In this document: positions 766 to 36,933 of the stretch, in pieces
How the letters are laid out: every line of letters starts with the position of its first letter
Numbering within the stretch: position 1 is the first letter of the stretch
IMG/VR virus record: IMGVR_UViG_3300007987_000009
Direction: 5' to 3' (one strand)
DNA: 64,000 nucleotides
Source of the DNA: a virus
Notes under the pieces: model-generated
Database searches by the model: none
Told to the model about the DNA's origin: nothing
Seen by the model: only the letters and a program-made list of their open reading frames with translations
Made by a program: the position numbers and the translations under genes

Positions 766-2406
766 TTAAGGGGCACAATCTTGGCTTCTAGCTTCAATAT
801 TACAAATGGTTACGACATCATAATTATCTATTCTCGTGTAGCTTACTGATATAGACGCGGGGTCTAATGAAGAAACACCATCGAACAGGCCAGAAGTTTC
901 ATCTAATTCATATACAAATGGAACACCGTTTGTTAGTTCAACTGTGTCAACAACAGTTGGTCCTATTAGACTATTAGCATTAATTTGTATATCTACGTCA
1001 ATATTGGGTGTCGGTCCGGACAACAACAGTTCGAATCTTATACCGTGAGACAAAGAAACCCCCGAACCGGAATATTCTATCGGGTTAGTTGAAACTGACG
1101 AACCGAATTCACCATAAACAAAACAGGTTCCGTCAAAATACGGGTTCGACTCAGACCCAAAAACAGACCAATCCGTAGTATCTCCTACCCAACAAAAAGA
1201 CACGCCCGAAGGTGTAGGCGTCACTGTAGGCGTCACTGTAGGCGTTACTGTAGGCGTCACTGTAGGCGTCACTGTAGGGGTAGGTGTCGGTGTAGGTGTT
1301 GGCGCGGTTGACGATGTAATAGACACTGTAGGAGTTGGGGTGCTGGACGGCAACGGAGCCACTACAACATCTTTTTCTATTTTTGGATAGACGACTTCAA
1401 TGTTGGATGGGTCAGAATATAAAACACCATTCACAAACACAAATGATGTATTCTCCGATTTTTGTCCTATTTCGCCAATGTCAATCAATTGTCCCAAATT
1501 CTTATCTGCTTTGTCATATGGACTGTTCGCTAACAATAACAAAAGTTGTTTAGACTTTATTTCACTAAAAGTTTCCGTATCAGGAAATAAATTTATTCCT
1601 TTGATTGTTAGACGAGTCAACTGTGGAATGTCTTGTAATGACTCATAGCGATCTTTTATAACTCTAAAATCTGCTATGTTTTTGGTTTTCACATTGAAGT
1701 TTCGCCTTCTTCTGAAAAGAATTGACCTAAAATCATTCCAAGGCGACAAGCCAGCTTCTAACCCAGATAAGGTTTCGACACAAAAAATAGGCTCTTCATT
1801 CGGTTCTTGCAGAACAATGTCCAACTGTATTGGACCGTTTGTATATATTTCTCGAAATGGCGTTCTATATCTGGATATGACTGCAAAAGATAACGTGTTG
1901 TTGTAAGAAATTTGGGTGAGATTTTCTGTATCTGGAATTGTATCTATACTGTCTTCCGAAATACTTCTGGCAATCAAATGAGCCTGTCCGGTGAAAGATC
2001 CACTAAAAACAATCTCTAGTTCGTTTGAAGATTTGTTTATAACGCTGAATACATTAGAACCCACCGGCACTATTTGTGTCCCATCTTCTGATTCCAGAAA
2101 AACCTTGACGACCGGTTGCGTATTGAGGTTGTGTTTAATTATCCATTTGTCTGATAGAATGCTTTGGTAATGCTTGAAAAATATTTTCCTAGGGGCAAAG
2201 TTTTCAAGATTACCAGCAGGGTCCGCTTCTCGAAAAGCCTCGCGAAAATTGTAAGCGTTTCTAGAGAGTTTATACATTTTACCCCTACAACCTTCGGTTA
2301 TTGTACACGAGCTGAACATGTTCAACCCTCTGGAGTTTTCTAGAAGTTCGATGTCCCTCTTGCAGGTATCACATTGATATTTTATAGTTGCCATGAATAT
2401 ATTCAA
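766..2406 (-). CDS. Putative virion structural protein with Pro/Thr linker
   Basis: 546-aa ORF; WIIKHNLN motif seen in large-phage structural proteins; PTPT/PTVT linker; upstream TAAATA late-promoter motif. Confidence 0.5.
   Translation of the reverse strand: MNIFMATIKYQCDTCKRDIELLENSRGLNMFSSCTITEGCRGKMYKLSRNAYNFREAFREADPAGNLENFAPRKIFFKHYQSILSDKWIIKHNLNTQPVVKVFLESEDGTQIVPVGSNVFSVINKSSNELEIVFSGSFTGQAHLIARSISEDSIDTIPDTENLTQISYNNTLSFAVISRYRTPFREIYTNGPIQLDIVLQEPNEEPIFCVETLSGLEAGLSPWNDFRSILFRRRRNFNVKTKNIADFRVIKDRYESLQDIPQLTRLTIKGINLFPDTETFSEIKSKQLLLLLANSPYDKADKNLGQLIDIGEIGQKSENTSFVFVNGVLYSDPSNIEVVYPKIEKDVVVAPLPSSTPTPTVSITSSTAPTPTPTPTPTVTPTVTPTVTPTVTPTVTPTPSGVSFCWVGDTTDWSVFGSESNPYFDGTCFVYGEFGSSVSTNPIEYSGSGVSLSHGIRFELLLSGPTPNIDVDIQINANSLIGPTVVDTVELTNGVPFVYELDETSGLFDGVSSLDPASISVSYTRIDNYDVVTICNIEARSQDCAP
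1213..1300. repeat. 12-bp tandem repeat (GTAGGCGTCACT) encoding the PTVT linker
   Basis: Directly visible tandem copies. Confidence 0.85.
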
Positions 2407-2538
2407 GCCTTTAAAGTATTTATCTTTAGTATCATGTTATGTATTTGCCGCATAAATATAACTCACACTCTTCTCTTTGAATAAGCAAGTCTTTATACTT
2501 TGTCATTGAGACTGGACAAGATTATTTATATTGGCAAT

Positions 2539-3084
2539 ATGAGCAAGATAATAGAAAACATAAAAAAAGAATGCTCCGATTTTCTTTCTATCACGAGCGT
2601 ATATCCAGCATTGAAAGCGTTCGATGACCATGGGAAATATTTTCGCAAAGTTAAAGTACGCCATAAGAAAAAACCAGTTGGTTTCATTCGCATTATCGGA
2701 GATGCTTTGCAAAAGGAGCATCGGAACATTCACATGCGTTCAGTAGTCGTCAACGGTCCTCATAGTGAAAAAGATGGGATGAAAACACACTACATCTTCC
2801 CGAAAAACGGGTTCAAATTTTTGTTCAATCCTAGAATCAATGATCACGAAGAGTATCGATACTCTTATACCAAATTGTTAGGATTAGATTTGGTCGACAA
2901 AGGAAAAGCTTTAGAAATGATGGAAGATTCAATCGAATACGCATACACCTCAGACAATACGTCATTGAACGATGCGTTAAAATCCAAGAAAGAAATTATC
3001 TTTTATGGAATGCAGTATTATTACACGGTGTCTTCCGAAAAATACCCATGCTACAACGAGTTGATACGACTCTTGCAAAAGTAA
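2539..3084 (+). CDS. Hypothetical protein
   Basis: Long ORF; ATG at 2539. Confidence 0.6.
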   Translation: MSKIIENIKKECSDFLSITSVYPALKAFDDHGKYFRKVKVRHKKKPVGFIRIIGDALQKEHRNIHMRSVVVNGPHSEKDGMKTHYIFPKNGFKFLFNPRINDHEEYRYSYTKLLGLDLVDKGKALEMMEDSIEYAYTSDNTSLNDALKSKKEIIFYGMQYYYTVSSEKYPCYNELIRLLQK

Positions 3085-3177
3085 AGACATAAGTATAAGA
3101 TACTCAAAGAATATTTCTTGAAAGACCCCTTCGGGTCTAAATAATCATCACCCAGCGCCCAACAATTAGGAGAAAGA

Positions 3178-4848
3178 ATGAACGCTAAAAAAGAAATTTT
3201 GGTAGAAAAGCGAGACGGAAGAAAAGAACCCCTAGACCTAGATAAGATACACAAAATATTGACATGGGCTTGCGAAGATGTAACCGGTGTTTCGGTATCC
3301 GACATCGCAATTAAAAGCCAGTTACAGTTTTTTGATGGAATGAAGGCAACCGAGATTCATTCTACATTGACTAAAACGGCGGCAGATTTAATATCTGAGG
3401 ACGCCCCAAATTATCAATACGTTGCAGCCAAATTGATTAACTTTAATCTCAGGAAAGAAGTATACGGTATGATTACCCCGTGGCCAATTAAAAAATTGGT
3501 AGAGAAGAATGTCGCAACCGGCTATTACACGAAAGAACTTCTTGAATGGTATGATGATCAAGAGTGGCGCAAGATGGACAAGATGATCAAACATGACCGG
3601 GATTTCGAATTTTCTTACACAGGAATGAAACAACTTTTAGGAAAATATCTTGTCCAAAACCGCGTAACAAAAGAATACTACGAAACACCACAGATGGCAT
3701 ACATGCTAATTGCAGCAACTCTTTTCCATGGCTATCCCGAAGACACTCGAATGAAGTTCGTAAAAGAATATTACGATGCCTTGAGTAAGTGGGACATTTC
3801 TGTTCCTACACCGATTTTAGCGGGAGTAAGAACACCTACCAAACAGTTCAGTTCTTGTGTATTAATTAATTCTGGTGACTCACTTTCCAGTATAAACGCA
3901 ACAGCTTCTTCTATCGTAAATTACGTTTCACGTAAAGCAGGGATTGGCATAAACGCTGGTAGGATCAGAGCAGTTGGTTCTGAGATTAGAAACGGAGAGA
4001 TCAAACACACTGGGGTCATTCCTTTCTTGAAATATTTTCATGCTGCGCTAAAAAGTTGTAGTCAAGGTGGGGTTAGGGGAGGTGCTGCGACTGTGTATTG
4101 GCCTTTCTTTCATTACGAGTTTGAAAATCTTATTGTTCTGAAAAACAATAAAGGGGTCGAAGAGAATAGAATCAGACATATGGACTACGGAGTACAATTA
4201 AACAGATTGGCGTATAAAAGGTTGATAGAGGGTGGGAAAATAACTTTCTTTTCTCCCCACGAGGTTCCAGACTTGATGGACGCATTCTATTCCGGAGATA
4301 ACGATGAATTTGAAAGAATATACGAAAAATATGAGAGAAGTAGAAAGATAAAAATGAAATACAGTCTACCGGCTCTAGAAGTGTTTGGTACGATAATGGA
4401 TGAAAGAGTCTCGACGGGTCGTATCTACATCCAAAATATCGATCATTGTAACACACAAGGGTCTTTCATATCGAAACTTCATCCTATAGAACAGAGCAAT
4501 TTGTGTGTGGTTGGGGATACAACGATAGATGTCTTACTGGATGACGAAATCCTTGAAACTATAATAATAGAAGATTTGGCTAAGTATCTGGTTGCTCATA
4601 GAAGCGTTAAAGTGAAATCATATGATTTGAATACCGGTACCGAAGTATATAGTGAAATAACGGATTTTGCACAAACCGGAATTAGTGAAGAACTTATCAC
4701 CATAACGTGTGAAAAAAGTGGAAAATCCGTAACCTGCACTGGTGAACATAAAATATTTACTATGAACAGAGGCTATGTTGAAGCTAAGAACTTGCGTGAA
4801 GACGATGTTCTTAAAATATTTATGGGCAATACAATATCCAAACACTAA
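3178..4848 (+). CDS. nrdA: Class Ia ribonucleotide reductase alpha, fragment 1 (ATP cone to QSNL) + split-intein N-half 1 (4504-4845)
   Basis: ATP cone VEKRDG; PTPILAGVRT, FSSCVL, SQGGVRGGAA, QSNL; then intein block A CVVGDT and block B TGEHKIFT, then stop. Confidence 0.95.
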   Translation: MNAKKEILVEKRDGRKEPLDLDKIHKILTWACEDVTGVSVSDIAIKSQLQFFDGMKATEIHSTLTKTAADLISEDAPNYQYVAAKLINFNLRKEVYGMITPWPIKKLVEKNVATGYYTKELLEWYDDQEWRKMDKMIKHDRDFEFSYTGMKQLLGKYLVQNRVTKEYYETPQMAYMLIAATLFHGYPEDTRMKFVKEYYDALSKWDISVPTPILAGVRTPTKQFSSCVLINSGDSLSSINATASSIVNYVSRKAGIGINAGRIRAVGSEIRNGEIKHTGVIPFLKYFHAALKSCSQGGVRGGAATVYWPFFHYEFENLIVLKNNKGVEENRIRHMDYGVQLNRLAYKRLIEGGKITFFSPHEVPDLMDAFYSGDNDEFERIYEKYERSRKIKMKYSLPALEVFGTIMDERVSTGRIYIQNIDHCNTQGSFISKLHPIEQSNLCVVGDTTIDVLLDDEILETIIIEDLAKYLVAHRSVKVKSYDLNTGTEVYSEITDFAQTGISEELITITCEKSGKSVTCTGEHKIFTMNRGYVEAKNLREDDVLKIFMGNTISKH

Positions 4849-4864
4849 ATAAAGATACACGGAA

Positions 4865-5794
4865 ATGACATTACCGACTATGAATTACGAGAAAATCTAT
4901 AACAATTTCATTATAGACTTTATTAACACTGATGTTAAGACTAGGATAATTCGAAGAAACCCGAGGGATTTGAGGCTCAATTCTGATAATTTATATGTTG
5001 AAAGACATCATATAGTTCCTAGATCAGAGGGAGGAATGGACAGTGAAGATAACATCGTGTCCCTCTTACCAGAAGAACACTTGTTTATACACTACTTGCG
5101 TTATAAAGTTTATGGGAAATATAATGATATTTGTGCCGTAAATCTAATGCTAAATGGCTTTTTTGGAAAAAAGTTGGAAGATATTCATGTTAACAAAATA
5201 CTGAGGAAAAAGTTTAAATACCAAAGAGAAGCTTTTTCTAGATTTATCAAAGCCAACAATTCCGGTCACCCAAGAATTTCTGAAGCTAGGAGAGGAAAAA
5301 TGCCTGTCAAGGATTTCATCACTGGAGAAATGATAGGCTCAGTTGATGTAAATCACGAAAATGTTCTGGGCGGAAAATGGGTTCACCATTCTAAAGGAAA
5401 AAGTTTAAAAAAAGATCAAAAAGAATATTTGAGCAAAAGGAATCGGGGATTAAAAAACTTTAATGCTCACAATATAAAGAACGAAGAGTACCTTGAACAG
5501 ACTATAGATTACATAAAGACTTGTTCCGATGGAAGGTTTATAAAATCTGAGTACAAGAAGTACTGCGAAGAAAAAAATTTAATTTACATAATAAACTTTT
5601 CTAAGCACCGTTGGAACGGGTCTAGGAAAAAATTTATTGAAGCGCTACGTAAAGAATGCAATAATCGTGGGATAGAGTTTGAATATGATCGTTATTATCG
5701 ATCTTCCCAACAAAAACAACAGATACGAGAAAGTAGTCTTGGAAAAAAAAGATTTTACCACCCGGACGGATCATTCACACTACAAAGGAAATAA
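4865..5794 (+). CDS. Free-standing HNH homing endonuclease in first nrdA break
   Basis: ERHHIVPRSEGG..N...EEHLFIH HNH motif; lies between intein halves. Confidence 0.85.
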   Translation: MTLPTMNYEKIYNNFIIDFINTDVKTRIIRRNPRDLRLNSDNLYVERHHIVPRSEGGMDSEDNIVSLLPEEHLFIHYLRYKVYGKYNDICAVNLMLNGFFGKKLEDIHVNKILRKKFKYQREAFSRFIKANNSGHPRISEARRGKMPVKDFITGEMIGSVDVNHENVLGGKWVHHSKGKSLKKDQKEYLSKRNRGLKNFNAHNIKNEEYLEQTIDYIKTCSDGRFIKSEYKKYCEEKNLIYIINFSKHRWNGSRKKFIEALRKECNNRGIEFEYDRYYRSSQQKQQIRESSLGKKRFYHPDGSFTLQRK

Positions 5795-5799
5795 TACAA

Positions 5800-6798
5800 A
5801 TGTTAACAATAACTAAACAGAAAATAACCAGACCCGTTTATGACATTACAGTAAAAGATACGTCAAATTTTTATGCGAATAATATACTAGTACACAACTG
5901 TGCGGAGATAACTTTGCCCACAACGCCTTTTGAGGGCGTCAATGACGAAAATGGTAGAATAGCTTTATGCACCCTCTCTGCTATAAATTGGGGAAATATC
6001 AAAAAGCCTGAAGATTTTGAAAAACCATGTGAGTTAGCAGTAAGGGCATTAGACTCTCTATTAACGTACCAAGATTTTCCTGCCATACAAGCAGAGCTTT
6101 CGACAAAAGAATTTAGAACTTTGGGTATAGGAATTATAAACTTGGCGTACTTTTTAGCCAAAAATAATATGCGTTATGACGGGTCTGCATTCGAGACAGT
6201 AGATGAATACATGGAAGCAATGGCGTTCTATTTGACCAAAGCTTCTGTACAACTTGCTAAAGAGCAAGGTCCTTGTGAACTTTCGGCAGAAACAAAATAT
6301 GGGATAGGGCAGTTCCCTTGGGAAAACCGCAAGAAAGAAATAGACGAGATCATACCACATAAGACCCGCTTTGACTGGGAAGGTCTACGATCCGAGATGG
6401 CACAGTATGGTATTAGAAATGCTACGTTGATGGCTCTGATGCCTAGCGAATGCCAGAGCTTGGACAACGAGATACTAATGAAAGACGGTTCTAAAACAAC
6501 ACTCGAAAAACTAATCCGAGAGTACGGAAACATTTCCATAGAAGACATTCATAGCAACCCGTTTATGATTGGACAACGGTTTTCTTTCCTGAAACCCGTA
6601 GAGTTGTCTGACTCTATAGCTCACGAGTTTTATTACAATGGACCTAAAGAAATCATTGAAATAGAATTTGAAGACGGATCATCATACAAGTTCACTGAAA
6701 ATCATAGATTGTTAGTTGATAGGGGCGGAAGCAGCCAATGGATCGAGATCAAGGATTTAAGAGAAAATGACAATGTAGTTAGCGTTAATACTAAATAA
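5800..6798 (+). CDS. nrdA: NrdA fragment 2: C-intein 1 (5800-5898) + extein CAEITLP..ALMPSE + N-intein 2 (6451-6795)
   Basis: VYDITV..NFYANNILVHN/C splice junction; ALCTLSAIN, LGIGIINLA, RNATLMALMPSE; then CQSLDNEI and FTENHRLLV intein blocks. Confidence 0.93.
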   Translation: MLTITKQKITRPVYDITVKDTSNFYANNILVHNCAEITLPTTPFEGVNDENGRIALCTLSAINWGNIKKPEDFEKPCELAVRALDSLLTYQDFPAIQAELSTKEFRTLGIGIINLAYFLAKNNMRYDGSAFETVDEYMEAMAFYLTKASVQLAKEQGPCELSAETKYGIGQFPWENRKKEIDEIIPHKTRFDWEGLRSEMAQYGIRNATLMALMPSECQSLDNEILMKDGSKTTLEKLIREYGNISIEDIHSNPFMIGQRFSFLKPVELSDSIAHEFYYNGPKEIIEIEFEDGSSYKFTENHRLLVDRGGSSQWIEIKDLRENDNVVSVNTK

Positions 6799-6849
6799 AA
6801 AAGTAACGGCATTAACGCCAACTTGGAAGACCGGGGGGGGGGTATTGGC

Positions 6850-7845
6850 ATGACTAAAAAATTTAATCCGTATGATCCGAAATATGTAATGAAGCGAGAC
6901 AATTGTTCTTTGGAAGAAGCAGAAAAAACTATTTGGTTGTTGAAAGAAAAGAATGCGTGGAATAGAGGGAAGAAGATAAAAAAAGCCAACCCATATGATC
7001 CGAAATATGTAATGAAGCGAGACAATTGTTCTTTGGAAGAAGCAGAAAAAACTATAGAACAATTTAAAAGGTCTAAAGCAACATCTAAGGACAACTTTGT
7101 AAAAAGATATGGCAAAGTCGAAGGACTAAAAAAATATGAGTCTTGGGCAGAAAAAACCTTACGAAGTGGGTGGGAATTGGCCAAAGAAAATGGAAGGGCA
7201 CAATCTCCGCGCTGTAAGGAATTTTACATGAAACGGGGCTTGGATGAATCTACTTCGATTGAAAAAGCGAAAGAATATCAAAGAGAAAATAGCCCACTCC
7301 ATGTAGAGTATTACATTAAGCGCGGAAAATCATTGGAGTACGCGAAAAAGAATATAAGAAAAATACACGACAAAAAGAAAGGAATAGACTCTTATGCAGA
7401 ATATTTGAAAAAAACTACAGAAATGACTGAAGTGGAGATAAAAGAAAAAATACGAGAGGTCAGGGGCCATAATTCTAAGAAAAAGCTAACCGACGAAGAA
7501 TTTTCTGCTAGAATGAAAAAATTGAGGAAAACCATGGAAGATTCTGGGATTTGGGTGCCATATGAATCCTTGACAGAATATGAATCCTATAAAAGAGAAG
7601 TATGGTCGCATACCAATCAAAATGACCTATCTGAATTAAAGAATTTTTATCTTAGAGGAAAAGCTGGGGAGGATGGAGCATACCATCTAGATCACAAATT
7701 TTCTATATCTAGGGGATTTATAGAAGGTATACCGCCAGAAATTATAGGCGACAAGAAGAATTTGGAATTTATTCCTTGGGAGGAAAATCTGTCTAAACAA
7801 GGAAAATGTACAATAACAATAGAGGAATTACACAATGAAAATTAA
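6850..7845 (+). CDS. Free-standing homing endonuclease (C-terminal HNH) in second nrdA break
   Basis: YHLDHKFSISRGF..NLEFIPWEENLSK; duplicated N-terminal NPYDPKYVMKRDNCSLEEAEKTI. Confidence 0.8.
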   Translation: MTKKFNPYDPKYVMKRDNCSLEEAEKTIWLLKEKNAWNRGKKIKKANPYDPKYVMKRDNCSLEEAEKTIEQFKRSKATSKDNFVKRYGKVEGLKKYESWAEKTLRSGWELAKENGRAQSPRCKEFYMKRGLDESTSIEKAKEYQRENSPLHVEYYIKRGKSLEYAKKNIRKIHDKKKGIDSYAEYLKKTTEMTEVEIKEKIREVRGHNSKKKLTDEEFSARMKKLRKTMEDSGIWVPYESLTEYESYKREVWSHTNQNDLSELKNFYLRGKAGEDGAYHLDHKFSISRGFIEGIPPEIIGDKKNLEFIPWEENLSKQGKCTITIEELHNEN

Positions 7846-8374
7846 AAGCATAAAACGAAATGTGGGCGTAGAACACACTTGGGATATATCTACGGATACC
7901 GAACAATACGCCCTATCAAATGGATCGATAAGTCACAATACTTCTTCACAATTAGCTAATGCCACCAACGGCGTAGAGCCGCCCAGAGGGTTGATCAGCG
8001 AGAAAAGTTCTAAGGACGGCAAAATGAAACAGGTGGTTCCTGAAATCTATCGCCTGAAGAACAAGTACGATCTTCTATGGGAACAAAAGTCACCAGATGG
8101 TTATTTGAGGATAATGAACATTATACAAAAGTATGTTGACCAAACCATTTCGGCAAATGTCAGCATCAATCCAGAAAACTATCCGGACAATAAGGTCCCT
8201 CTTCAGGAGCTTTTAAAGCAACTCCTTGAGTTTTACAAATATGGTGGCAAGACCTTATACTATCACAATACTTATGATGGTGCCGGGGAAGAAAAGGAAG
8301 AAGTCGAAGTAGTATTAGAGCCCAAGACCGAGGAACTTGACGATGAAGAAGGTTGTTCTTCATGCATATTATAA
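7835..8374 (+). CDS. nrdA: NrdA fragment 3: C-intein 2 (7835-7939) + C-terminal extein
   Basis: TWDIST..YALSNGSISHN/T junction; TSSQLANATNGVEP, KTLYY, C-terminal CSSC redox pair. Confidence 0.93.
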   Translation: MKIKSIKRNVGVEHTWDISTDTEQYALSNGSISHNTSSQLANATNGVEPPRGLISEKSSKDGKMKQVVPEIYRLKNKYDLLWEQKSPDGYLRIMNIIQKYVDQTISANVSINPENYPDNKVPLQELLKQLLEFYKYGGKTLYYHNTYDGAGEEKEEVEVVLEPKTEELDDEEGCSSCIL

Positions 8375-8396
8375 AGTATAATAACTAAGGAAAGAT

Positions 8397-9512
8397 ATGA
8401 CTAAAAGCGTTTATAACCCAGACAACAAAAAGTCTCACAAGAAATGTACAATGTTCTTGGATGATCAAAATACTTCGGTAACGATAGCTCGTTATGACGA
8501 CGTTAAATATCCAAAAGCCACTAAGATGTATGAAAAACAACTTAGTTTCTTTTGGCGTCCAGAAGAAATTAACATATCAAGAGACGCCAAAGATTTTAGG
8601 GACCTGTCAGATCACGAGAAACATATATTTTTGTCTAATTTGAAAAGACAGATTCTCTTAGACTCTGTTCAAGGAAGATCACCGAATCTAGCGTTTCTTC
8701 CCATAACAACATTACCGGAAATAGAATCTTTCATCGAGGTGTGGTCCTTTGTTGAAGGTATTCACAATCAATCGTACACTCACATTATCCGCAACGTATT
8801 GCCGAACCCGTCTATGGTGTTTGATGAAATAAACAACATACCGGAAATTCTGGAATGTGCCTCCGACATCAGCAAACATTATGATAATTTGATAGCTATC
8901 ACTAACTACGTCGATGTTAATGGGTATGACGCACCAGTCAGCAAATATGAACACAAAAAAGCCCTATGGATGGCATTGATGGCCGTCAACATTTTGGAAG
9001 GGATCAGGTTTTATGTGAGCTTTGCTTGTTCGTGGGCTTTTGCTGAACAGGACAAGATGGAAGGGAATGCCAAAATAATAAAGTTCATTTGCAGGGACGA
9101 AAATTTGCATCTGGGGTTCACACAATTCTTGCTGAATACTTTAGAAAAAGATGACCCAGATTTTATAAAAATACGTAGCGAAACCGAAGAAGATTGTGTC
9201 CAAATGTTTATTAGTGCTGTAGATCAGGAAAAAGCATGGGCCGATTATCTCTTCAAAGACGGGTCTATGCTAGGACTGAACGCACAACTGTTGAAAGATT
9301 ATGTAGAATGGATTGCAAACAAACGAATGACAAGAATCGGGTTGAGTAGTCCATACGTGGTGCCTAGAGACAATCCTCTATCGTGGACAGAATCGTGGAT
9401 AGCTGGCCGAGAAACACAAAACGCCCCACAGGAAGTTGAGATATCAACGTATCTTGTTGGTGAAGTAGACAAAAAAGTAGAAAACGAGGCTTTTAAAAAT
9501 TTCAGTTTATGA
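8397..9512 (+). CDS. nrdB: Class Ia ribonucleotide reductase beta subunit
   Basis: FFWRPEE, LLDSVQGRSP, EGIHNQSY, EGIRFYVSF, RDENLH, APQE motifs. Confidence 0.96.
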   Translation: MTKSVYNPDNKKSHKKCTMFLDDQNTSVTIARYDDVKYPKATKMYEKQLSFFWRPEEINISRDAKDFRDLSDHEKHIFLSNLKRQILLDSVQGRSPNLAFLPITTLPEIESFIEVWSFVEGIHNQSYTHIIRNVLPNPSMVFDEINNIPEILECASDISKHYDNLIAITNYVDVNGYDAPVSKYEHKKALWMALMAVNILEGIRFYVSFACSWAFAEQDKMEGNAKIIKFICRDENLHLGFTQFLLNTLEKDDPDFIKIRSETEEDCVQMFISAVDQEKAWADYLFKDGSMLGLNAQLLKDYVEWIANKRMTRIGLSSPYVVPRDNPLSWTESWIAGRETQNAPQEVEISTYLVGEVDKKVENEAFKNFSL

Positions 9513-9584
9513 TATCGTTAAATAACTTTGTTATTAATTCTACCCGAATAATATATAAATACAAACAGTATCCGAGACAAAAAA

Positions 9585-10013
9585 TTGAAACTAACAGAAA
9601 TAATGAACCCAACTGATTCTGGTCCAAAAAGAATTGCTGTATACCAAACAGACCATGAGTTCCTTCCAACTCATCGTAAATTCGTTGCAGAAGGAAGTAT
9701 TGTTGTGGATTTGGATGAAAAAAGAACTCCCTCGTTGTTTTCAGACCCCGCATATTTTTTGAATGGTGTGCAGGGGTGGGAGGGAACAGCTTACTTTACT
9801 AATTTATATGGTGAGTATATAAAAGGAAAAAGAGATCATTGGGGAAAAGTCATACAGCCAGACCAGATAAAAAATCTGAAATACGATTTGTTTGTACATC
9901 TTACATATGGGGAAAAACAGGGAGCACTTTTCTCGGAAGTCGATTCGACTCACAAAGAAGAGATTGAAAGAGTAGCATATCCTAAATTGCTGGAAGCCAT
10001 TAAAGAGCTATAA
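9585..10013 (+). CDS. Hypothetical late protein
   Basis: ORF downstream of TATAAATA; MKLTEI-type N-terminus. Confidence 0.55.
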   Translation: MKLTEIMNPTDSGPKRIAVYQTDHEFLPTHRKFVAEGSIVVDLDEKRTPSLFSDPAYFLNGVQGWEGTAYFTNLYGEYIKGKRDHWGKVIQPDQIKNLKYDLFVHLTYGEKQGALFSEVDSTHKEEIERVAYPKLLEAIKEL

Positions 10014-30407: not shown

Positions 30408-31022
30408 ATGTACAACCCATTTTCATTCAAAAAGAATGATGCAGTAGAAATATTGGTAATCGCAGATCGATCTGGCTCTATGCAATCCATTGAAAAAGAT
30501 GCAGTCGGAGGGTTCAACGCGTTTTTAAAAGAACAAAAAAGTATAGAGGGGGAGGCAAGACTCTCTTTGGTTCTTTTTGACGATCAATATGAAATGAAAC
30601 TAGATTCTGTTCCCCTTGCAGAGGTCACGGAGATAGAATCTTTGGGGCCAAGAGGAATGACTGCGATGAACGATGCTATTGGTCGTGCTATGAATAGTCT
30701 GTTTGAAAAAGACCCAGAAAAGGCTATTATTTGTATTTTGACCGACGGTCAGGAAAACGCGAGTCGAGAATACAACAATTCGCAGATTAAAGAAATGATT
30801 CAGAAAGCGGAAAAAGAAAAAGGATGGCAGGTTATCTATCTCGCCGCAAACCAAGATGGATTTAGTGAAGGCGCAAGTAGGGGAATATCAAAATCTAACA
30901 TTTTTAACTATAACGCTGATGCTAACGGGATCAACGACGCGTACAAGGACTTGAGTTTTTCTGTTCGCTCTTATAGACAAAATACTTCCAACACTTACAC
31001 GGACAAAAACACCGTGGAATGA
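30408..31022 (+). CDS. von Willebrand factor A (vWA) domain protein
   Basis: DRSGSM MIDAS, GMTAMNDAIG, ILTDGQENAS. Confidence 0.9.
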   Translation: MYNPFSFKKNDAVEILVIADRSGSMQSIEKDAVGGFNAFLKEQKSIEGEARLSLVLFDDQYEMKLDSVPLAEVTEIESLGPRGMTAMNDAIGRAMNSLFEKDPEKAIICILTDGQENASREYNNSQIKEMIQKAEKEKGWQVIYLAANQDGFSEGASRGISKSNIFNYNADANGINDAYKDLSFSVRSYRQNTSNTYTDKNTVE

Positions 31023-31026
31023 AAAC

Positions 31027-31311
31027 ATGAATCTTGAAAATTACGTAAAAGATTTGGAAGGGTTTATCAAGAACCGGTTGGCGTATTTCGTATCAGAATA
31101 TGCCGTCGAAGGAGATTCCGAAGATTTATCGGGTGTTACTTTAAAAGATTTTATGGACAGAGAAATAGACAAAGTGACTATTCAAATAGATAGTGCGTAT
31201 ATTTCACGAGATCACGTGACTGGACAGAGAATTTTTAGGGTTAATGCAAAAATGGGAAATGACACTTTCTGCTCGGAATTGAGAGTAAACGATTATATCT
31301 TCAAAAAGTAA
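31027..31311 (+). CDS. Hypothetical protein
   Basis: ORF. Confidence 0.5.
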   Translation: MNLENYVKDLEGFIKNRLAYFVSEYAVEGDSEDLSGVTLKDFMDREIDKVTIQIDSAYISRDHVTGQRIFRVNAKMGNDTFCSELRVNDYIFKK

Positions 31312-31328
31312 AAAAGTCGAAAAAAGTG

Positions 31329-31357
31329 TTGACAAATGTCCCACATGGTAGTAATAT
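31329..31357 (+). promoter_or_regulatory. Sigma70-type promoter upstream of giant RNA
   Basis: TTGACA-N17-TAATAT. Confidence 0.65.
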
Positions 31358-31399
31358 GTATCACATGATCTGTTTTGAAAGATTCAGATCAAAAGTTTA

Positions 31400-32247
31400 A
31401 AGCATGGATGCTTGCTTTGGGCAACCAGAGTAAAGGGTGAAAGAACTACAATTCATCCGTCCCGCAAGGGTCAAGCCATGCAAGCGCCGGTTAGGAAGTA
31501 CGAGATAAAACTCTAAGGCTTCCCCGTATGATAAGTGCGGTGTGTGCGAAATCGAGAGTAAGAGTCCGAAAGGATAGTCTCAGAGCCATTCGGTGAGAGA
31601 CAAGGCAGTTGGCGCTGCTCACTTTTACATGCCAACTCGATGAGCATTTAATACTAAGGCGTAGGTATAGGGTTCGATTGTTCGCGCAAGAGATGCTCTG
31701 TACCATCTTGATCGGATGAAGTGTAACAACTTCAGTCGTGAAAAGACGTTGAGTAGCTCGCAAGGCGAAAGACAGTGTGGAGTGTTGTATTCTGATGGAC
31801 AAAATCTGTTGGAGCAACTGGGGCAGCACTTCATGGTAGGTAATACGATACGGCCAAATTGGTAAAGGCATCTGTTTCCTAGACAGACGATTGAAGGTTC
31901 AATTCCTTTTATTGTTGAAAAAGCGAAAGTCTGCCTCAGTGTGCTGTTAAAGGCGATTAATACCAGACCGAAAAGAATCTGGTGCAACAATACCCGCAAG
32001 GTTGCGTTGTTTGATCGGACAGAAGACGTAAGAGTTTAGCGACTCCGAATGGCTCGCAAGGTCAGCGGAAGATGGAAGGTCGAGTAGCAGTACATGATGA
32101 GTGAACCGCCACACTCTAAAAAAGGCATCGTTGGAAGATACTAGGAGAGCGTTCGACGCGCCTAGTGGATAACGGGAGAACCCACCGAAAGCAAAGGTAG
32201 GGATAATGCCCAAAGGCTTCCAAGACATTGCCGTAGTCTCAAGCGTG
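31400..32247 (+). ncRNA. Giant structured ncRNA, GOLLD-like
   Basis: ~850 nt with no + strand ORF >=60 aa; raised GC; many GCAA/GAAA tetraloop hairpins; phage tRNA-region context; family assignment from recollection, boundaries approximate. Confidence 0.7.
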
Positions 32248-32297
32248 TCATTTTATTTCTCAGACCATTTACGAGTGGTTTAAGAAATGAAAAAAAT

Positions 32298-32364
32298 GGA
32301 GGCCATTTTGTTCGCATCCTTCTACTATTTTTGGATAATATAATCAGCGACATAGCTTTCCTCC
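32298..32364 (+). ncRNA. Y-RNA-like repeat unit 1
   Basis: GGAGG/CCTCC closing stem; AGGCCAT..GCATCCTTCTACTAT..AGCG..TTTCCT. Confidence 0.6.
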
Positions 32365-32378
32365 TATAAATTTTAAAA

Positions 32379-32463
32379 ATCATTGAAGGCTATATATGTG
32401 CATCCTTCTACTATTAGAATTACATCTAACTCAAAATGTGCGCAGATTCTTTCTTTCAATGAT
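32379..32463 (+). ncRNA. Y-RNA-like repeat unit 2
   Basis: ATCATTGAAGG/CTTTCAATGAT closing stem; AGGCTAT..GCATCCTTCTACTAT. Confidence 0.6.
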
Positions 32464-32475
32464 ATCTATGATTAT

Positions 32476-32618
32476 GACAGGCCATTGATATGTGCATCCT
32501 TCTACATATAGGTAATTTGTGGGTCGCAGGTTCGAGTCCTGCCCTCCCGTCCATTTATCGGGAGGTAGCTCAGTTGGTAGAGCAACAAACAAAAAATAGC
32601 GTTATCTTCTTTCCTGTC
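32476..32618 (+). ncRNA. Y-RNA-like unit 3 with circularly permuted tRNA module (YrlA-like)
   Basis: GACAGG/CCTGTC closing stem; order T-arm (GCAGG-TTCGAGT-CCTGC), loop-closed acceptor (CTCCCG/CGGGAG), D-arm (TAGCTCAGTTGGTAGAGC). Confidence 0.75.
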
Positions 32619-32694
32619 CCCTCTTTACAACATCCCCCCAAGTCTATATACTGTTCCCACAAATAAAGAAGTACATATTCGCGAGGTTAGTAGA

Positions 32695-32997
32695 ATGATA
32701 GATTTAATAAGAGAAGCGAAAAATAGATTGATGCAAACCGACATTTTATTCTCCAACAACACCGAACAACTTAGGAGCAAAGTAGAAAAAGAACTTTCTA
32801 TTACGGTAGAAATGTGCTATGGAGCCCCCTTGTATTCAGTTAAATGCGACAGTGAAAACAATACAGAAGAATCTATTGGAAAAAATAAACTGGTAGTACA
32901 TTTCACTGGAAACACTGTAGAGACCCCAAGTTTTTCACTGACACTTGAACCCGATACGGAAGCAGGTGGTCCAAAGTTTAATCTAGAAAGACTTTGA
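32695..32997 (+). CDS. Hypothetical protein
   Basis: ORF with GAGG RBS. Confidence 0.5.
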   Translation: MIDLIREAKNRLMQTDILFSNNTEQLRSKVEKELSITVEMCYGAPLYSVKCDSENNTEESIGKNKLVVHFTGNTVETPSFSLTLEPDTEAGGPKFNLERL

Positions 32998-33035
32998 AAA
33001 TAAGTTCGCCAAACCCGGTATAGATTCACAACAAT

Positions 33036-33144
33036 GCAGTCGTTCTCGTTCTAGAGTGAGAACATATGGGTAAATGGGCGGGAGAGCATGCATCAAATAT
33101 TCACTCTTAGCCGTTGAATGGAAGTTCGATTCTTTCAGACTGCG
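33036..33144 (+). ncRNA. tRNA-like small RNA
   Basis: GCAGTC/GACTGC terminal stem; GAAG-TTCGATT-CTTT T-arm; strong terminator immediately after. Confidence 0.5.
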
Positions 33145-33151
33145 CTAATTC

Positions 33152-33180
33152 AAAGGGCTGACTTCGGTCAGCCCTTTTTA
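33152..33180 (+). terminator. Intrinsic terminator
   Basis: AAAGGGCTGAC-TTCG-GTCAGCCCTTTTT. Confidence 0.9.
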
Positions 33181-33251
33181 TTTGTCCGTTGACATCACAT
33201 CTAAAAGCAAGTACAATTTATGAATTCTACAATAAGAAGAGAGTTCGAAAC

Positions 33252-33863
33252 ATGAAATCTTATCCAAGTATACCACATAAAATCGACTGGAAACTTAAGT
33301 ATATTGCGTTTGACAAACTAGACGGATCAAATATAAGGGCCGAATGGTCCAAGAAGAGGGGTTTTTACAAGTTTGGTTCTAGGACACAACTGTTGAATGA
33401 ACAACAAACTTCCCTATATCCATCAATAGATATAATTAAGGGCAAATACGAAGATGGTGTTGCTACAATGTTCAAGAACATGGGCTATGATCGAGGTATA
33501 TGTTTCTTTGAATATTTTGGTCCTAATTCTTTTGCCGGATCACATTCTGATCCGGTACAAGATATGGACGCCGTTCTGATTGATGTCAATCCATACAAAA
33601 AGGGAATAATTCCCGCAAATGAGTTCCTAGAGGTTACACGAGGTATGGAAGTACCTGATGTTCTGTATACAGGTGTTCTCGATGAAGAATTTGTGGATTC
33701 GGTCAAGGACAGCACTCTTCCGGGGATGACGTTAGAGGGTGTTGTGATCAAAGCAGTAGATAAGAAACATAATTCCATGGCGAAGATTAAGTCTAGGAAA
33801 TGGCTTGACATGCTCAAAGAATACTGCAATAATGATCCTAAACTATTCAACAGGTTAAAATAA
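33252..33863 (+). CDS. RNA ligase-like nucleotidyltransferase
   Basis: YPSI, DKLDGSN (motif I), EGVVIK, AKIKS. Confidence 0.75.
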   Translation: MKSYPSIPHKIDWKLKYIAFDKLDGSNIRAEWSKKRGFYKFGSRTQLLNEQQTSLYPSIDIIKGKYEDGVATMFKNMGYDRGICFFEYFGPNSFAGSHSDPVQDMDAVLIDVNPYKKGIIPANEFLEVTRGMEVPDVLYTGVLDEEFVDSVKDSTLPGMTLEGVVIKAVDKKHNSMAKIKSRKWLDMLKEYCNNDPKLFNRLK

Positions 33864-34456
33864 TGATAGAACTCGAATTACTGGAACACCCAACATACCC
33901 CGAGAACCGAGTTCGCTTTACTGCTCGGGTAGATATGGTTAAAATGATGGTGTGGCTGGCACACCGTGGAGAAAAATATGAACGGGTCCGGGGGACTACT
34001 AAAGATGGGAAGTCTTTCATATTTGAAGGATTCTTTTTACTTCCTTCCGATATTAAAAATACCGACGCAACTGAGCCGGATTTAGAGGAAATAATTTGTC
34101 AGGGGTGCTTTGATCATTGTGTAGTACAAAAAGAAGAAGAAATGAATGCCGGCCAAAAAATGGAGCAGATGTTCCGAAAAGATTCACAATTACTACGAGG
34201 GATAGAACTCTGTGAAATAGAGTATGATGAAAAGACTGATACATACTCCATGGTTTTGTTGTCTGAAAGTATGAAATACATCATATGCGGCAGAGACAAA
34301 ACGCCAAATTGCAATAACTACATGGGTTGTATTGCAACTGAAAGATACGGGATCGCGGGAAATGATCTAAGTGACGGAGACTTTTCTGCAAACACATGGA
34401 GCCAAATCGTACTTGATATTCAATATTACGAGGCTTTGTCTAAATCGGATTTATAA
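33863..34456 (+). CDS. Hypothetical protein
   Basis: Coupled ORF. Confidence 0.5.
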   Translation: MIELELLEHPTYPENRVRFTARVDMVKMMVWLAHRGEKYERVRGTTKDGKSFIFEGFFLLPSDIKNTDATEPDLEEIICQGCFDHCVVQKEEEMNAGQKMEQMFRKDSQLLRGIELCEIEYDEKTDTYSMVLLSESMKYIICGRDKTPNCNNYMGCIATERYGIAGNDLSDGDFSANTWSQIVLDIQYYEALSKSDL

Positions 34457-34458
34457 TT

Positions 34459-34782
34459 ATGAAAAGAAAGCAATTGGTAAGAATGAAGTTCAGGGACGCA
34501 GTTTTAAAGCGGGACAATTATACGTGTGTGAGTTGTGGTCGAAAAATGGACGAAAAGCTATTGGACGCCCATCACATAACCGACCGAAACGAAATGCCCA
34601 ACGGTGGTTATGTAAAAGAAAACGGCATTACTCTATGTAAAGAAAAGTGTCACTTGGAGGCCGAACAGTTTCATATCAGCGGCGGGAAAAATTGGACAGA
34701 TGGCTTGCATCCCGACGAATTGTATGCTAAGATAGGCTCTTCAAAGGAAGAAGCAATATCTGCTTCAAGGAGATTAAAATGA
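34459..34782 (+). CDS. Small HNH nuclease
   Basis: RDNYTCVSCG..LDAHHI..NGITLC..CH. Confidence 0.8.
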   Translation: MKRKQLVRMKFRDAVLKRDNYTCVSCGRKMDEKLLDAHHITDRNEMPNGGYVKENGITLCKEKCHLEAEQFHISGGKNWTDGLHPDELYAKIGSSKEEAISASRRLK

Positions 34783-35432
34783 ACCATTACAAGTACCCTA
34801 GAACGCCACACCTTCCATGGAGTGAAGGAGTTACCGACGATGATAAAAAGCTTTCTTCTGTTGATCATTTCGAAGGTAAAAGAGTTTACGCCACCGAGAA
34901 ACTCGACGGAGAAAATACGACACTTTATCGAGATTATGTTCATGCTAGGAGTATAGATTCTCCCACAAATTTTACTCGATCTTGGGTGCAAAATTTCCAT
35001 CGTCAAATTGCGCACAATATTCCAGAAGGATGGAGAATTGTGGGTGAGAATGTATGGGCAGAACACTCAATCCGATACGAGAATTTGAAATCATACTTCT
35101 ATCCATTTGCGGTCTATAACGACGAAAATTTCTGTCTTTCTAAGGGCGATATGGAAATTTTCTTGAGAACGGAAGCTTTTAAGGATTTGCCAAATCGTTG
35201 GAAAATACCAACGAGCCCACCGGTGATATACAGAGATGTTTTCGATAGATATGCCATAGAGGCCATTGAAATCGACCGAGAAAAACAGGAGGGGTATGTT
35301 ATTAGAACCGAAGACGGTTTTCATTATGATGATTTCGCACTCCATGTTGCTAAATATGTTCGAGAAGGTCATGTCCAGACTGACATACATTGGCTGAAGA
35401 ACGCCAAGAAAAATGGGGAAATAAAAGGATGA
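34779..35432 (+). CDS. ATP-dependent RNA ligase family protein
   Basis: KYPRTPHLPWS, TEKLDGEN, GENVWAEHSI, EGYVIR, AKYVR. Confidence 0.85.
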   Translation: MNHYKYPRTPHLPWSEGVTDDDKKLSSVDHFEGKRVYATEKLDGENTTLYRDYVHARSIDSPTNFTRSWVQNFHRQIAHNIPEGWRIVGENVWAEHSIRYENLKSYFYPFAVYNDENFCLSKGDMEIFLRTEAFKDLPNRWKIPTSPPVIYRDVFDRYAIEAIEIDREKQEGYVIRTEDGFHYDDFALHVAKYVREGHVQTDIHWLKNAKKNGEIKG

Positions 35433-35528
35433 TGTGTCATATGACACATCATCCAAATTTAGAAAAATAATTTCTAAATATATGAATGATCATAACCAAT
35501 AATACTTCTTCCAGATGGAATTTTTCAG

Positions 35529-36167
35529 ATGAGCGGTGAATGCATCTTTAGTAAAATCTACAAAAACAACGCATGGAAAGGGGAAGAATCTCGAAGCGGT
35601 CCCAGTTCCGGCATGGAAAGAACTAGAGTACTTCGAGAAACTTTGCCAAACATAATAAAAAAATACAAAATATCCACTTTTCTAGACATCCCCTGTGGAG
35701 ATTTTTATTGGATGAAAAGTGTTCCGATTGACGTAGATTATGTCGGTGGGGACATAGTGTCGGAAGTCATAGAAAAAAACAATCTGGATTTTTCCACAAA
35801 TCGAAAAAAATTTATTCACACAAATCTAGTGGAAGATTCTCTACCAAAAGGGGATTTGCTGTTCTGTCGAGATTGTTTATTTCATCTGTCTTATGGGGAC
35901 ATAGCAAAAGTTTTTCAAAACATATTACATTCCGAAGTAAAATATATAATGTTAACTAGTCACATAACAGACCAAAATTTCCAAAATAAAGATATAAAAA
36001 CGGGGCAATGGAGATGGTTCGATTTAACTAAAACGCCCTTTTGTATTCCAGAAAGCTTGTGTTTAGAAAAAGTGATGGATGGTGGCGGTGACCGCTACAT
36101 GTTGATGTGGAGGGTAGACGAGATAACAGAATTTCTAAAAAATAGTATAGAATTACTCAGAGATTAA
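35529..36167 (+). CDS. Class I SAM-dependent methyltransferase
   Basis: SRSGPSS, LDIPCGDF.W, DLLFCRDCLFHL. Confidence 0.85.
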   Translation: MSGECIFSKIYKNNAWKGEESRSGPSSGMERTRVLRETLPNIIKKYKISTFLDIPCGDFYWMKSVPIDVDYVGGDIVSEVIEKNNLDFSTNRKKFIHTNLVEDSLPKGDLLFCRDCLFHLSYGDIAKVFQNILHSEVKYIMLTSHITDQNFQNKDIKTGQWRWFDLTKTPFCIPESLCLEKVMDGGGDRYMLMWRVDEITEFLKNSIELLRD

Positions 36168-36933
36168 AATATTTGATCGAATAGTTGTCTATTTGTCGCA
36201 CAATGTTTTGGTATTTTGGATCTAACAACACCAACAGGTCTTTCCACTCTTGAGACCCCGTGAGTTCTTTCCAACGCTTTATTCGATATTCGTTAATACC
36301 CCAAGATATTTTTTTGCTGTCTATGGTTCTATTTGGACTGCAATGGATTCCATGAACCGGCCTAAACTTCCCTATGTCTAAATCTTTTCTGGGTTCTTTC
36401 CCTGTTTTTTGTGTGACCAAAAGATACAGGGCCATTTCGTCATTGATTTTATCGAGAGTTGCATCTCTTTGCATCGGGAGAGGATAGTATGAGTCCCATT
36501 TTGTAAAGTGCAGTCCAGTCAACTTTGTTGTGTTGGGCCGAACGATATTTGAAAAATCTTGTCCGGTTTCCGACATTAGTTTGAGATGTATATCAGTAAT
36601 GTTTTTGTCAGTAAAAAATATGTCTATATCTGATATGTAAACAAACTTCGCTTTGGTTACAGGTTCGTGTATGAACCTGACAGTATTTGGTATTGCATCG
36701 CCGAAATCTACTTCAGTGAGTTTGAAATTTTCACTAATATTTTGTTGGATGAAATTTAATGATTTTTTATAATCTTTAGTAAATTGGGTTTTATCATTTA
36801 GAAATATTTCAACAAAAGAATCTTCTTGGGTTTTAAAAATGCTGAACAAAAAAGGAACTACAAAATGATAATATGGCTCGTTTGCGCAAGTCAAAAATAG
36901 CGTTCTGGGGTTAGAATCCATGGGGGTCATCAT
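36157..36933 (-). CDS. Putative GT-A fold glycosyltransferase
   Basis: YISDIDI DxD motif; located in glycan cluster. Confidence 0.5.
   Translation of the reverse strand: MMTPMDSNPRTLFLTCANEPYYHFVVPFLFSIFKTQEDSFVEIFLNDKTQFTKDYKKSLNFIQQNISENFKLTEVDFGDAIPNTVRFIHEPVTKAKFVYISDIDIFFTDKNITDIHLKLMSETGQDFSNIVRPNTTKLTGLHFTKWDSYYPLPMQRDATLDKINDEMALYLLVTQKTGKEPRKDLDIGKFRPVHGIHCSPNRTIDSKKISWGINEYRIKRWKELTGSQEWKDLLVLLDPKYQNIVRQIDNYSIKYFNL

Follow-up and report, generated by a model that had tools for sequence, protein, structure and literature searches.

A phage nrdA gene in three pieces, with two split inteins predicted to rejoin its product by protein trans-splicing

To our knowledge, the fractured genes described so far carry single breaks only. 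Here, we describe a phage nrdA gene, encoding the large subunit of class Ia ribonucleotide reductase (RNR), that is broken twice. It occupies positions 3178-8374 on the + strand of a 64,000-nucleotide (nt) stretch of IMGVR_UViG_3300007987_000009, and we refer to this whole stretch as the window. The locus fits the fractured-gene type of Dassa et al. 2009 at both of its breaks: the cuts fall at conserved sites, the N-terminal part comes first, the pieces end or begin with the N-terminal (IntN) or C-terminal (IntC) half of an intein, and an endonuclease open reading frame (ORF) on the same strand lies between the pieces. From the sequence, we put the probability that two protein trans-splicing reactions give one 770-amino-acid (aa) NrdA at about 0.8. 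The large subunit would be made as three polypeptides and joined by two independent trans-splicing reactions. The first pair of intein halves (IntN1 and IntC1) would join ...QSNL to Cys439, the splicing nucleophile and thiyl-radical residue alike, and the second pair (IntN2 and IntC2) would join ...MPSE, ending at residue 623, to Thr624. Residue numbers of NrdA are those of E. coli.

The closest described systems are the loci of Dassa et al. 2009 (GOS NrdA-1 to NrdA-7, gp41-1, NrdJ-1, and IMPDH-1; PMC2677866), which likewise consist of co-oriented ORFs with a split intein and a free-standing endonuclease. In these loci as in ours, a short spacer and a hairpin precede the homing endonuclease gene (HEG), and the HEG runs at its 3' end into the IntC ORF. 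In every fractured NrdA locus of that study, the cut falls immediately before the thiyl-radical Cys (PMC2677866). This GOS NrdA insertion point is site 1 of our locus, a likeness of position, and a split intein at the same SNL/C junction (GOS NrdA-2) splices both in cis and in trans (PMC7090010 supplement). In contrast to these loci, there are two fractures in one gene here, which creates a middle piece with an IntC-extein-IntN layout. The second site, Glu623/Thr624, is absent from the fractures published in PMC2677866; so far, its only known occupant is a contiguous intein annotated in Campylobacter phages. The endonucleases also differ, being HNH or HNH-like here and GIY-YIG or Vsr-like in the Dassa loci.

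In the T4-like phage Aeh1, nrdA is likewise split by an HNH homing endonuclease gene (nrdA-a/mobE/nrdA-b; Friedrich 2007; Crona 2011, PMC3045599). The Aeh1 pieces are co-transcribed, and expression of the endonuclease is limited by a hairpin and a late promoter (PMC3045599). However, Aeh1 has no intein: the pieces stay separate and carry short charged tails, and the break lies between the equivalents of Cys439 and Cys462, which is neither of the sites used here. Work on multi-intein RNR genes and on engineered tandem trans-splicing (PMC7090010, PMC7210297) provides a further comparison, in that one host can carry several inteins and a middle segment flanked by IntC and IntN must not react with itself. 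The described natural multi-intein RNRs have contiguous inteins, and three-piece ligation has so far been engineered, whereas here it is the layout of a natural gene. A literature search whose coverage lay mostly outside subscription journals returned no paper on a natural gene with two split inteins.

Six co-oriented + strand ORFs, nearly unspaced, span positions 3178-9512 of the window. The features, with the evidence for each, are as follows.

3178-4848, + strand: ORF 1, nrdA piece 1 and IntN1, 556 aa
3178..4503, + strand: nrdA piece 1, N-extein, 442 aa (Pfam; phmmer to E. coli NrdA 5r1r)
4504..4848, + strand: IntN1, 114 aa and stop (Pfam Intein_splicing at 458-545; NrdJ-1 intein 8ubs)
4865..5794, + strand: HEG1, free-standing HNH homing endonuclease gene, 309 aa (Pfam HNH, phrog_655, McrA)
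5800-6798, + strand: ORF 3, IntC1, middle extein, and IntN2, 332 aa
5800..5898, + strand: IntC1, 33 aa (Pfam Intein_splicing, query 4-33 against profile 126-155)
5899..6450, + strand: nrdA piece 2, middle extein, 184 aa (phmmer to 2r1r/7mdi)
6451..6798, + strand: IntN2, 115 aa and stop (invariant residues; Pho RadA intein match)
6782..6818, + strand: hairpin with arms GCGTTAAT / ATTAACGC and CTAAATAA in the loop (inverted-repeat search)
6850..7845, + strand: HEG2, 331 aa from ATG 6850, or 340 aa from TTG 6823 in the ORF listing (phrog_5104)
7835-8374, + strand: ORF 5, IntC2 and nrdA piece 3, 179 aa
7835..7939, + strand: IntC2, 35 aa (conserved motif in homologues)
7940..8374, + strand: nrdA piece 3, C-extein, 144 aa and stop (phmmer to E. 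coli NrdA)
8397..9512, + strand: nrdB, small subunit, 371 aa, the next gene in the same orientation (Pfam Ribonuc_red_sm, E 8e-56)

We aligned the three pieces to solved NrdA structures with phmmer. Residues 5-442 of piece 1 align to residues 3-438 of E. coli NrdA and end at QSNL (against 5r1r, query 5-445 matches chain 3-441 with E 8e-175). Residues Cys34 to Glu217 of piece 2 align to Cys439 to Glu623, CAEI...ALMPSE (against 2r1r/7mdi, query 33-220 matches E. coli 438-626 with E ~1e-52). Piece 3 continues from its Thr36, the equivalent of Thr624, with TSSQLANATNG (E 6e-43). The three exteins of 442, 184, and 144 aa tile E. coli NrdA colinearly, without a missing or repeated residue at the two joints, and add up to a 770-aa protein. 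Pfam places the ATP-cone, the all-alpha domain, and positions 1-212 of the RNR barrel profile on ORF 1, profile positions 206-394 on ORF 3, and positions 390-523 on ORF 5. The catalytic residues of a class Ia large subunit are likewise complete across the pieces, and all three of its domains are present: piece 1 holds the equivalents of Cys225 and Asn437; piece 2 holds Cys439, at the +1 position, with Glu441 and Cys462; and piece 3 holds LYYHNT (Tyr730/731) and the C-terminal CSSC Cys pair. An earlier note on this DNA had claimed an nrdA gene cut into three genes, and the ORFs, their order and strand, and the junction residues are as it stated in the ORF listing and in the phmmer and Pfam results. 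Joining the exteins does restore QSNL-CAEI and MPSE-TSSQ as in E. coli NrdA, and by the same alignment the thiyl-radical Cys439 does occupy the position of the +1 nucleophile of the first splice.

The state of the exteins bears on the question of whether this is a decaying nrdA, broken by selfish elements and no longer functional. A multiply interrupted Campylobacter phage nrdA has been read as degenerating (Dwivedi et al. 2013; PMC3653736), and the RefSeq record of Campylobacter phage CPt10 flags its disrupted nrdA as a pseudogene. In our locus, however, all three exteins run their full length uninterrupted by a frameshift or stop, and every catalytic residue is kept. Each nrdA piece has a start codon and a ribosome-binding site (RBS), and nrdB is intact. 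In addition, the architecture is kept at 42-61% identity in many lineages, and a near-identical copy occurs on 37 contigs. We therefore regard decay as improbable.

We asked whether the sequences at the breaks are complete inteins. Intein 1, inserted before Cys439, has halves of 114 aa (IntN1) and 33 aa (IntC1); intein 2, inserted at Glu623/Thr624, has halves of 115 aa (IntN2) and 35 aa (IntC2). Halves of these lengths add up to a mini-intein divided at the canonical position. IntN1 begins with CVVGDT (block A) and carries CTGEH (block B, TxxH), and IntC1 carries VYDITV (block F) and ILVHN (block G), followed by the +1 Cys. IntN2 begins with CQSLDN and carries FTENH (block B), and IntC2 carries EHTWDIST (block F) and SISHN (block G), followed by the +1 Thr. 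Thus, the residues of a class 1 intein are complete at both sites (C, T-G-E-H, H-N, and +1 Cys for intein 1; C, T-E-N-H, H-N, and +1 Thr for intein 2). Pfam Intein_splicing matches the tail of piece 1 (458-545) and both ends of piece 2, IntN1 matches the NrdJ-1 intein structure 8ubs (E 6e-5), and IntN2 matches the Pho RadA intein (E 3.5e-4). Profile searches with IntN1, IntN2, and IntC1 over all ORFs of the window found no further intein half. The Pfam matches, the blocks in all four halves, and the alignments bear out the two split inteins that had been proposed at these sites, both of them class 1 inteins, the IntC-extein-IntN topology of the middle piece, and the lengths given for the IntC halves, 33 and 35 aa.

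We then looked at the conservation of these residues. The middle piece was searched against a collection of 5.8 billion proteins, and many proteins of ~330 aa match it end to end. In 27 aligned middle pieces (42-61% identity), His32-Asn33 of IntC1, the +1 Cys, and Cys218, Thr299, and His302 of IntN2 are invariant. Related loci gave the same picture for the outer halves: Cys1, GDT, T..H, and NRGYV of IntN1 are conserved in 10 homologues, and homologues of IntC2 keep MKIK..EHTWD..SNG.[VI]SHN followed by T or S. That residues needed only for splicing are fixed argues that the halves are not mere docking tags and that the gene is not dead.

Docking would mean that the chains are never covalently joined and that the intein halves act as high-affinity docking domains in a noncovalent large subunit of three chains. 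There is a precedent in the Aeh1 NrdA-a/NrdA-b protein, which is split, held together by charged tails, and fully active without splicing (PMC3045599). In two loci of the same gene family (L081 and L082), nrdA is also broken in Aeh1 fashion between the equivalents of Cys439 and Cys462, the tail being basic and the leader acidic. The extensions here, however, are not short charged tails but Hint-domain halves of 114/33 and 115/35 aa. Their splicing-only residues (Cys1 of both IntN halves, the block B Thr..His, and the His-Asn of both IntC halves) are invariant or conserved in dozens of diverged copies, and an intein left at Cys439 would bury the catalytic radical site. We thus consider noncovalent assembly unlikely, and we favor covalent joining by trans-splicing.

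Two observations count against trans-splicing or weaken the case for it. The +1 residues are also essential or conserved in RNR itself, so their conservation is uninformative about splicing. Moreover, in the AlphaFold2 model of a relative with a contiguous site-2 intein (P0003), the beta-rich intein segment has a predicted local distance difference test (pLDDT) score of 61-85, and the score falls below 50 at the C-terminal junction. A Foldseek search with the same model returned only RNR, as the RNR part dominated the matches.

The breaks could also be repaired at the RNA level, with the endonuclease ORFs lying in self-splicing introns, or being bypassed, so that nrdA mRNA is continuous. Phage RNR genes are the commonest hosts of group I introns (PMC3653736), and the Klebsiella jumbo phage KP13-7 has an apparent intron-like insert at a third site in nrdA, near residue 297. 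However, a cmscan search of positions 2400-9600 against Rfam 15 gave 0 matches at E<=1 on both strands, with no group I or group II intron among them. The spacers outside the ORFs measure 16 nt between the IntN1 stop and HEG1, 5 nt between HEG1 and piece 2, and 51 nt between piece 2 and HEG2, while the 3' end of HEG2 overlaps the start of piece 3 by 11 nt. With gaps of 16, 5, 51, and -11 nt, there is no room for an intron core. The endonuclease genes are flanked by in-frame halves of a Hint domain and not by noncoding RNA, and if the endonuclease genes alone were removed, each intein would become contiguous and protein splicing would still be required. Thus, RNA-level repair seems highly improbable to us. 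Protein trans-splicing remains the reading that we prefer.

The earlier note had also placed a homing endonuclease in each break. For the first break this is well founded, as HEG1 is clearly an HNH protein by its sequence: it matches Pfam HNH (PF01844) with 22.0 bits against a cut-off of 21.4 and phrog_655, 'homing endonuclease', with E 3e-28, and its motif aligns to the McrA HNH structure 6ghc (E 2.6e-6). For the second break, the assignment is probable, by motif and weak fold similarity. HEG2 matches phrog_5104, of unknown function (E 8.5e-20), and has ~40 full-length homologues. Asp281-His282, Asn304, and Asn313 are invariant in this family, which is an HNH/HNN pattern. In the AlphaFold2 model (pLDDT 88.8), the N-terminal part is helical, and a beta-beta-alpha unit at 278-316 carries the invariant residues. 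The weak fold matches on 278-316 are repeatedly HNH nucleases (I-HmuI, Cas9 HNH, Gme HNH, GVE2 HNH, and T5 SciA). Telling against this assignment, HEG2 had no Pfam match and no sequence match in the PDB, and none of its fold matches is significant (Foldseek E ~2-8; VIA-align Z 2.6-3.6). Judged by motif and model, HEG2 is probably an HNH/HNN-type homing endonuclease.

Since HEG2 homologues begin with MKKxNPYDP, its start is most likely ATG 6850 and not TTG 6823. The 23-aa module NPYDPKYVMKRDNCSLEEAEKTI occurs twice, identically, at HEG2 residues 5-27 and 44-66 (window 6862-6930 and 6979-7047). This duplication is seen throughout the HEG2 family, and Tandem Repeats Finder nevertheless found no DNA repeat in HEG2. 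The last ~90 residues are common to many shorter proteins at 55-60% identity. Several of the proteins with this C-terminal domain carry N-terminal helix-turn-helix Pfam domains, and some are labeled 'transposase-like' in their source; proteins that share the domain may be unrecognized homing endonucleases. We also observed a run of ten G residues at 6833-6842, 7 nt upstream of the probable HEG2 start. The run is absent in homologous loci, where the RBS comes directly after the hairpin; it could be a ribosome-binding site, a slippage-prone tract, or a hot spot for sequencing error.

The hairpin upstream of HEG2 (6782-6818) is a perfect inverted repeat of 8 bp, which was equaled in 5/500 shuffles. 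Its 5' arm codes for the last residues of IntN2, and its 3' arm precedes the HEG2 start region. Homologous site-2 loci have stems of 9-12 bp at the same place, formed by two different stem sequences, with TAAATA in the loop and an RBS directly after the 3' arm. The 12-bp stem of L083 and the 11-bp stem of L001 were each equaled in 0/500 shuffles, and L166 and L167 have a 9-bp stem that was outside the shuffle comparison. KP13-7 has a 14-bp stem upstream of its site-1 endonuclease (0/500 shuffles), and in the window there is no such hairpin upstream of HEG1. RNAalifold on a MAFFT alignment of the hairpin loci could not demonstrate covariation because the L001 stem is shifted in the alignment. 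When the four junction regions were folded as RNA, none had a z-score better than that of shuffled sequences, and the HEG2 hairpin was seen only by the direct inverted-repeat search.

A hairpin ahead of the endonuclease has been reported for fractured genes (PMC2677866) and for Aeh1 mobE (PMC3045599), and in T4-type phages a hairpin with a late promoter is known to delay or limit endonuclease expression. By analogy, with HEG2 behind a hairpin that carries a late-promoter-like TAAATA in its loop, translation of the endonuclease may be low or late. The motif CTAAATAA is not enriched, occurring 4 times in the window against 4.6 expected; 3/4 copies lie in the nrdA operon (3137, 4845, and 6791, + strand), 13-52 nt before the starts of piece 1, HEG1, and HEG2. 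As the count is at chance level, we treat it as a mere lead for a promoter motif. The copy ahead of piece 1 comes after a GACCC/GGGTC hairpin. All three nrdA pieces have a start codon preceded by a separate Shine-Dalgarno sequence (AGGAGA, AAGGA, and AGAGGA, respectively); the AAGGA of piece 2 sits within the 3' end of HEG1, and the AGAGGA lies 8 nt upstream of piece 3. Because each piece has its own RBS and no terminator-like site was found on the + strand between the nrdA pieces, the pieces are probably co-transcribed.

We then considered how widespread the architecture is. We sorted 125 proteins, the 120 matches listed for the middle piece and 5 cluster members, by architecture. The double fracture (IntC1-extein-IntN2) accounts for 31/125. 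Site 1 alone is interrupted (IntC1-extein-C-extein) in 53/125, and 4/125 have IntC1 and the extein followed by a contiguous site-2 mini-intein. A further 23/125 have the extein and IntN2 without IntC1, 8/125 carry the N-extein, middle extein, and IntN2 with no site-1 intein (site 2 only), and 6/125 are other or partial forms. Public data contain at least 27 protein clusters, defined at 90% identity, of IntC-extein-IntN middle pieces. Most of the related nrdA genes in IMG/VR are uninterrupted; some have site 1 only (L008 and L012-L014, in addition to the 53 protein clusters among the matches listed), some have site 2 only (L001, L015, L083, L086, L166, and L167, as has the phage phiKp_21), and L081 and L082 have both. 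A doubly fractured nrdA had been expected to be unusual, and this expectation was not borne out: at least 27 clusters, L081, L082, and phage KP13-7 share the layout. Thus, the double-fracture layout is common in public phage sequences and yet apparently undescribed.

KP13-7 (OP617745, Alcyoneusvirus; L161) resembles the window in having both split inteins at the same two sites, within 30877-36407. Its middle piece is an annotated 341-aa coding sequence, and its second gap holds a HEG2 homologue. It differs in having a GIY-YIG-type gene in gap 1, where the window has HNH, in an extein identity of only ~55-60%, and in a third insert. This insert, ~660 nt with a 128-aa ORF near residue 297, appears intron-like, since the reading frame picks up again at the residue where it broke off. 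In the KP13-7 record, 5/7 ORFs are annotated 'hypothetical protein'. Two nrdA pieces (the middle one included) and the gap ORFs carry this label. Its congener phiKp_21 (L165) has the site-2 fracture only, so the site-1 element is polymorphic for presence within one genus.

Campylobacter phages carry other forms of the site-2 element. CP220 has a contiguous site-2 mini-intein, and CPt10, whose gene RefSeq flags as a pseudogene, combines a contiguous site-2 mini-intein with a site-1 fracture. CP21 has an IntN2-bearing nrdA ORF followed by separate ORFs, an apparent site-2 fracture on a reading of the annotation. In the contiguous site-2 mini-inteins P0003 (~219-365), P0049, P0055, and P0057, IntN2 is fused directly to IntC2. 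The P0003 junction reads ...LQLK-MKIKK..., with the start Met of IntC2 retained, which fits the gain or loss of an endonuclease cassette exactly at the split point. The sequences thus suggest that the cassette may be gained or lost precisely there.

In L081 (4792-8944) and L082, on IMG/VR contigs of 101 and 251 kb, nrdA lies in four ORFs. A contiguous mini-intein of ~143 aa sits near residue 297. The halves of the site-1 split intein are ~70 nt apart with no endonuclease between them, and the site-2 split intein retains only a remnant of HEG2. There is also an extra, intein-less break between the equivalents of Cys439 and Cys462, flanked by a Lys/Arg-rich tail of 50 aa and an Asp/Glu-rich leader of 33 aa; it resembles the tails of Aeh1 NrdA-a/NrdA-b and falls in the same interval. 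The 23 extein-IntN2 clusters (~315 aa, without IntC1) may be of this type, and one of them (P0032) is on the L082 contig.

Does this distribution reflect one element or two? We built a FastTree phylogeny of 248 distinct middle exteins. After its near-identical copy, the window has uninterrupted genes as its nearest extein neighbors. Even when only well-supported branches are counted, at least 20 changes are required to explain the 'both' state, a number that is rough because the sample is biased to intein-bearing proteins and the tree is short. Whether an element at site 1 goes with one at site 2 was tested on the tree, and the two showed no significant association (median p 0.29). The elements are scattered over the tree, with presence and absence among close relatives, and the gap-1 occupant varies among phages, being HNH in the window and GIY-YIG-like in KP13-7. 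As the nearest extein relatives are uninterrupted, the two split inteins appear to be mobile independently of each other, and the picture of two independently mobile elements is clear. Each split intein would be a separate selfish element that arose when a free-standing HEG entered a mini-intein gene at the canonical point of endonuclease insertion. In co-infected cells, the HEG would then carry the entire cassette into nrdA alleles that lack the intein.

The source of the window bears on whether the layout could be an artifact. The middle piece recurs, with 1 substitution (Q160E, in the extein), on 37 contigs from JGI, ENA, and Logan assemblies, the longest of 256,834 bp; therefore, the layout is not a misassembly. 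Megablast of the region against GenBank phages gave no match, and blastn against the same set detected similarity at the level of the nrdA exteins only, with no close relative of the window. The window is part of an uncultured large phage, and the 25 tRNA genes on its + strand (17010-51689) are consistent with a jumbo phage.

Because the middle piece carries IntC1 at one end and IntN2 at the other, we asked whether the two pairs are likely to be orthogonal. The two intein families are far apart, which speaks for orthogonality: IntN1 and IntN2 are identical at 33/98 aligned residues, and IntC1 and IntC2 at 6/33. An IntN1 profile scores 155 bits on IntN1 and 16 bits on the piece 2 ORF, which carries IntN2; for an IntN2 profile, the score is 156 bits with the ORF it comes from and 12 bits with piece 1. 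An IntC1 profile search of the window ORFs did not find IntC2. The persistence of the middle piece in many lineages argues that any cyclization through IntC1 and IntN2 is not harmful in extent. On the other side, diverged split inteins are usually orthogonal in any case (15/16; PMC7090010), so that little should be made of the divergence seen here. In addition, both IntN halves have a net charge of -8 and both IntC halves begin with a +3/+4 segment, and with charge patterns so alike, charge steering would not separate the pairs; mispairing, or cyclization of the middle piece, may still occur. Natural orthogonality of the two pairs is thus plausible on sequence grounds. More tentatively, and with some doubt on our part, the middle piece may be a repeatedly evolved case of natural tandem trans-splicing in which the threat of cyclization selected strict mutual orthogonality and perhaps ordered assembly. 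If so, the dozens of natural IntC1/IntN2 combinations would be a ready resource for finding out what determines the specificity of split inteins. For multifragment ligation, the family adds candidate pairs (+1 Cys and +1 Thr), a use of modest practical value because many orthogonal pairs already exist.

These results have consequences for annotation and experiment. Pieces of the KP13-7 nrdA are labeled 'hypothetical protein' and the CPt10 gene is labeled a pseudogene. KP13-7 is in culture, so double trans-splicing in vivo is open to ordinary proteomics. The IntC-extein-IntN layout is the one deliberately used to cyclize proteins, and its persistence in many lineages implies a natural orthogonality that can be measured. 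If the tentative proposal of selected orthogonality and ordered assembly is correct, the two splicing events, one at the radical Cys and one at the substrate-binding loop, could gate RNR activity during infection. A natural enzyme stitched from three polypeptides would show how far an essential gene can be broken up by selfish elements and still survive.

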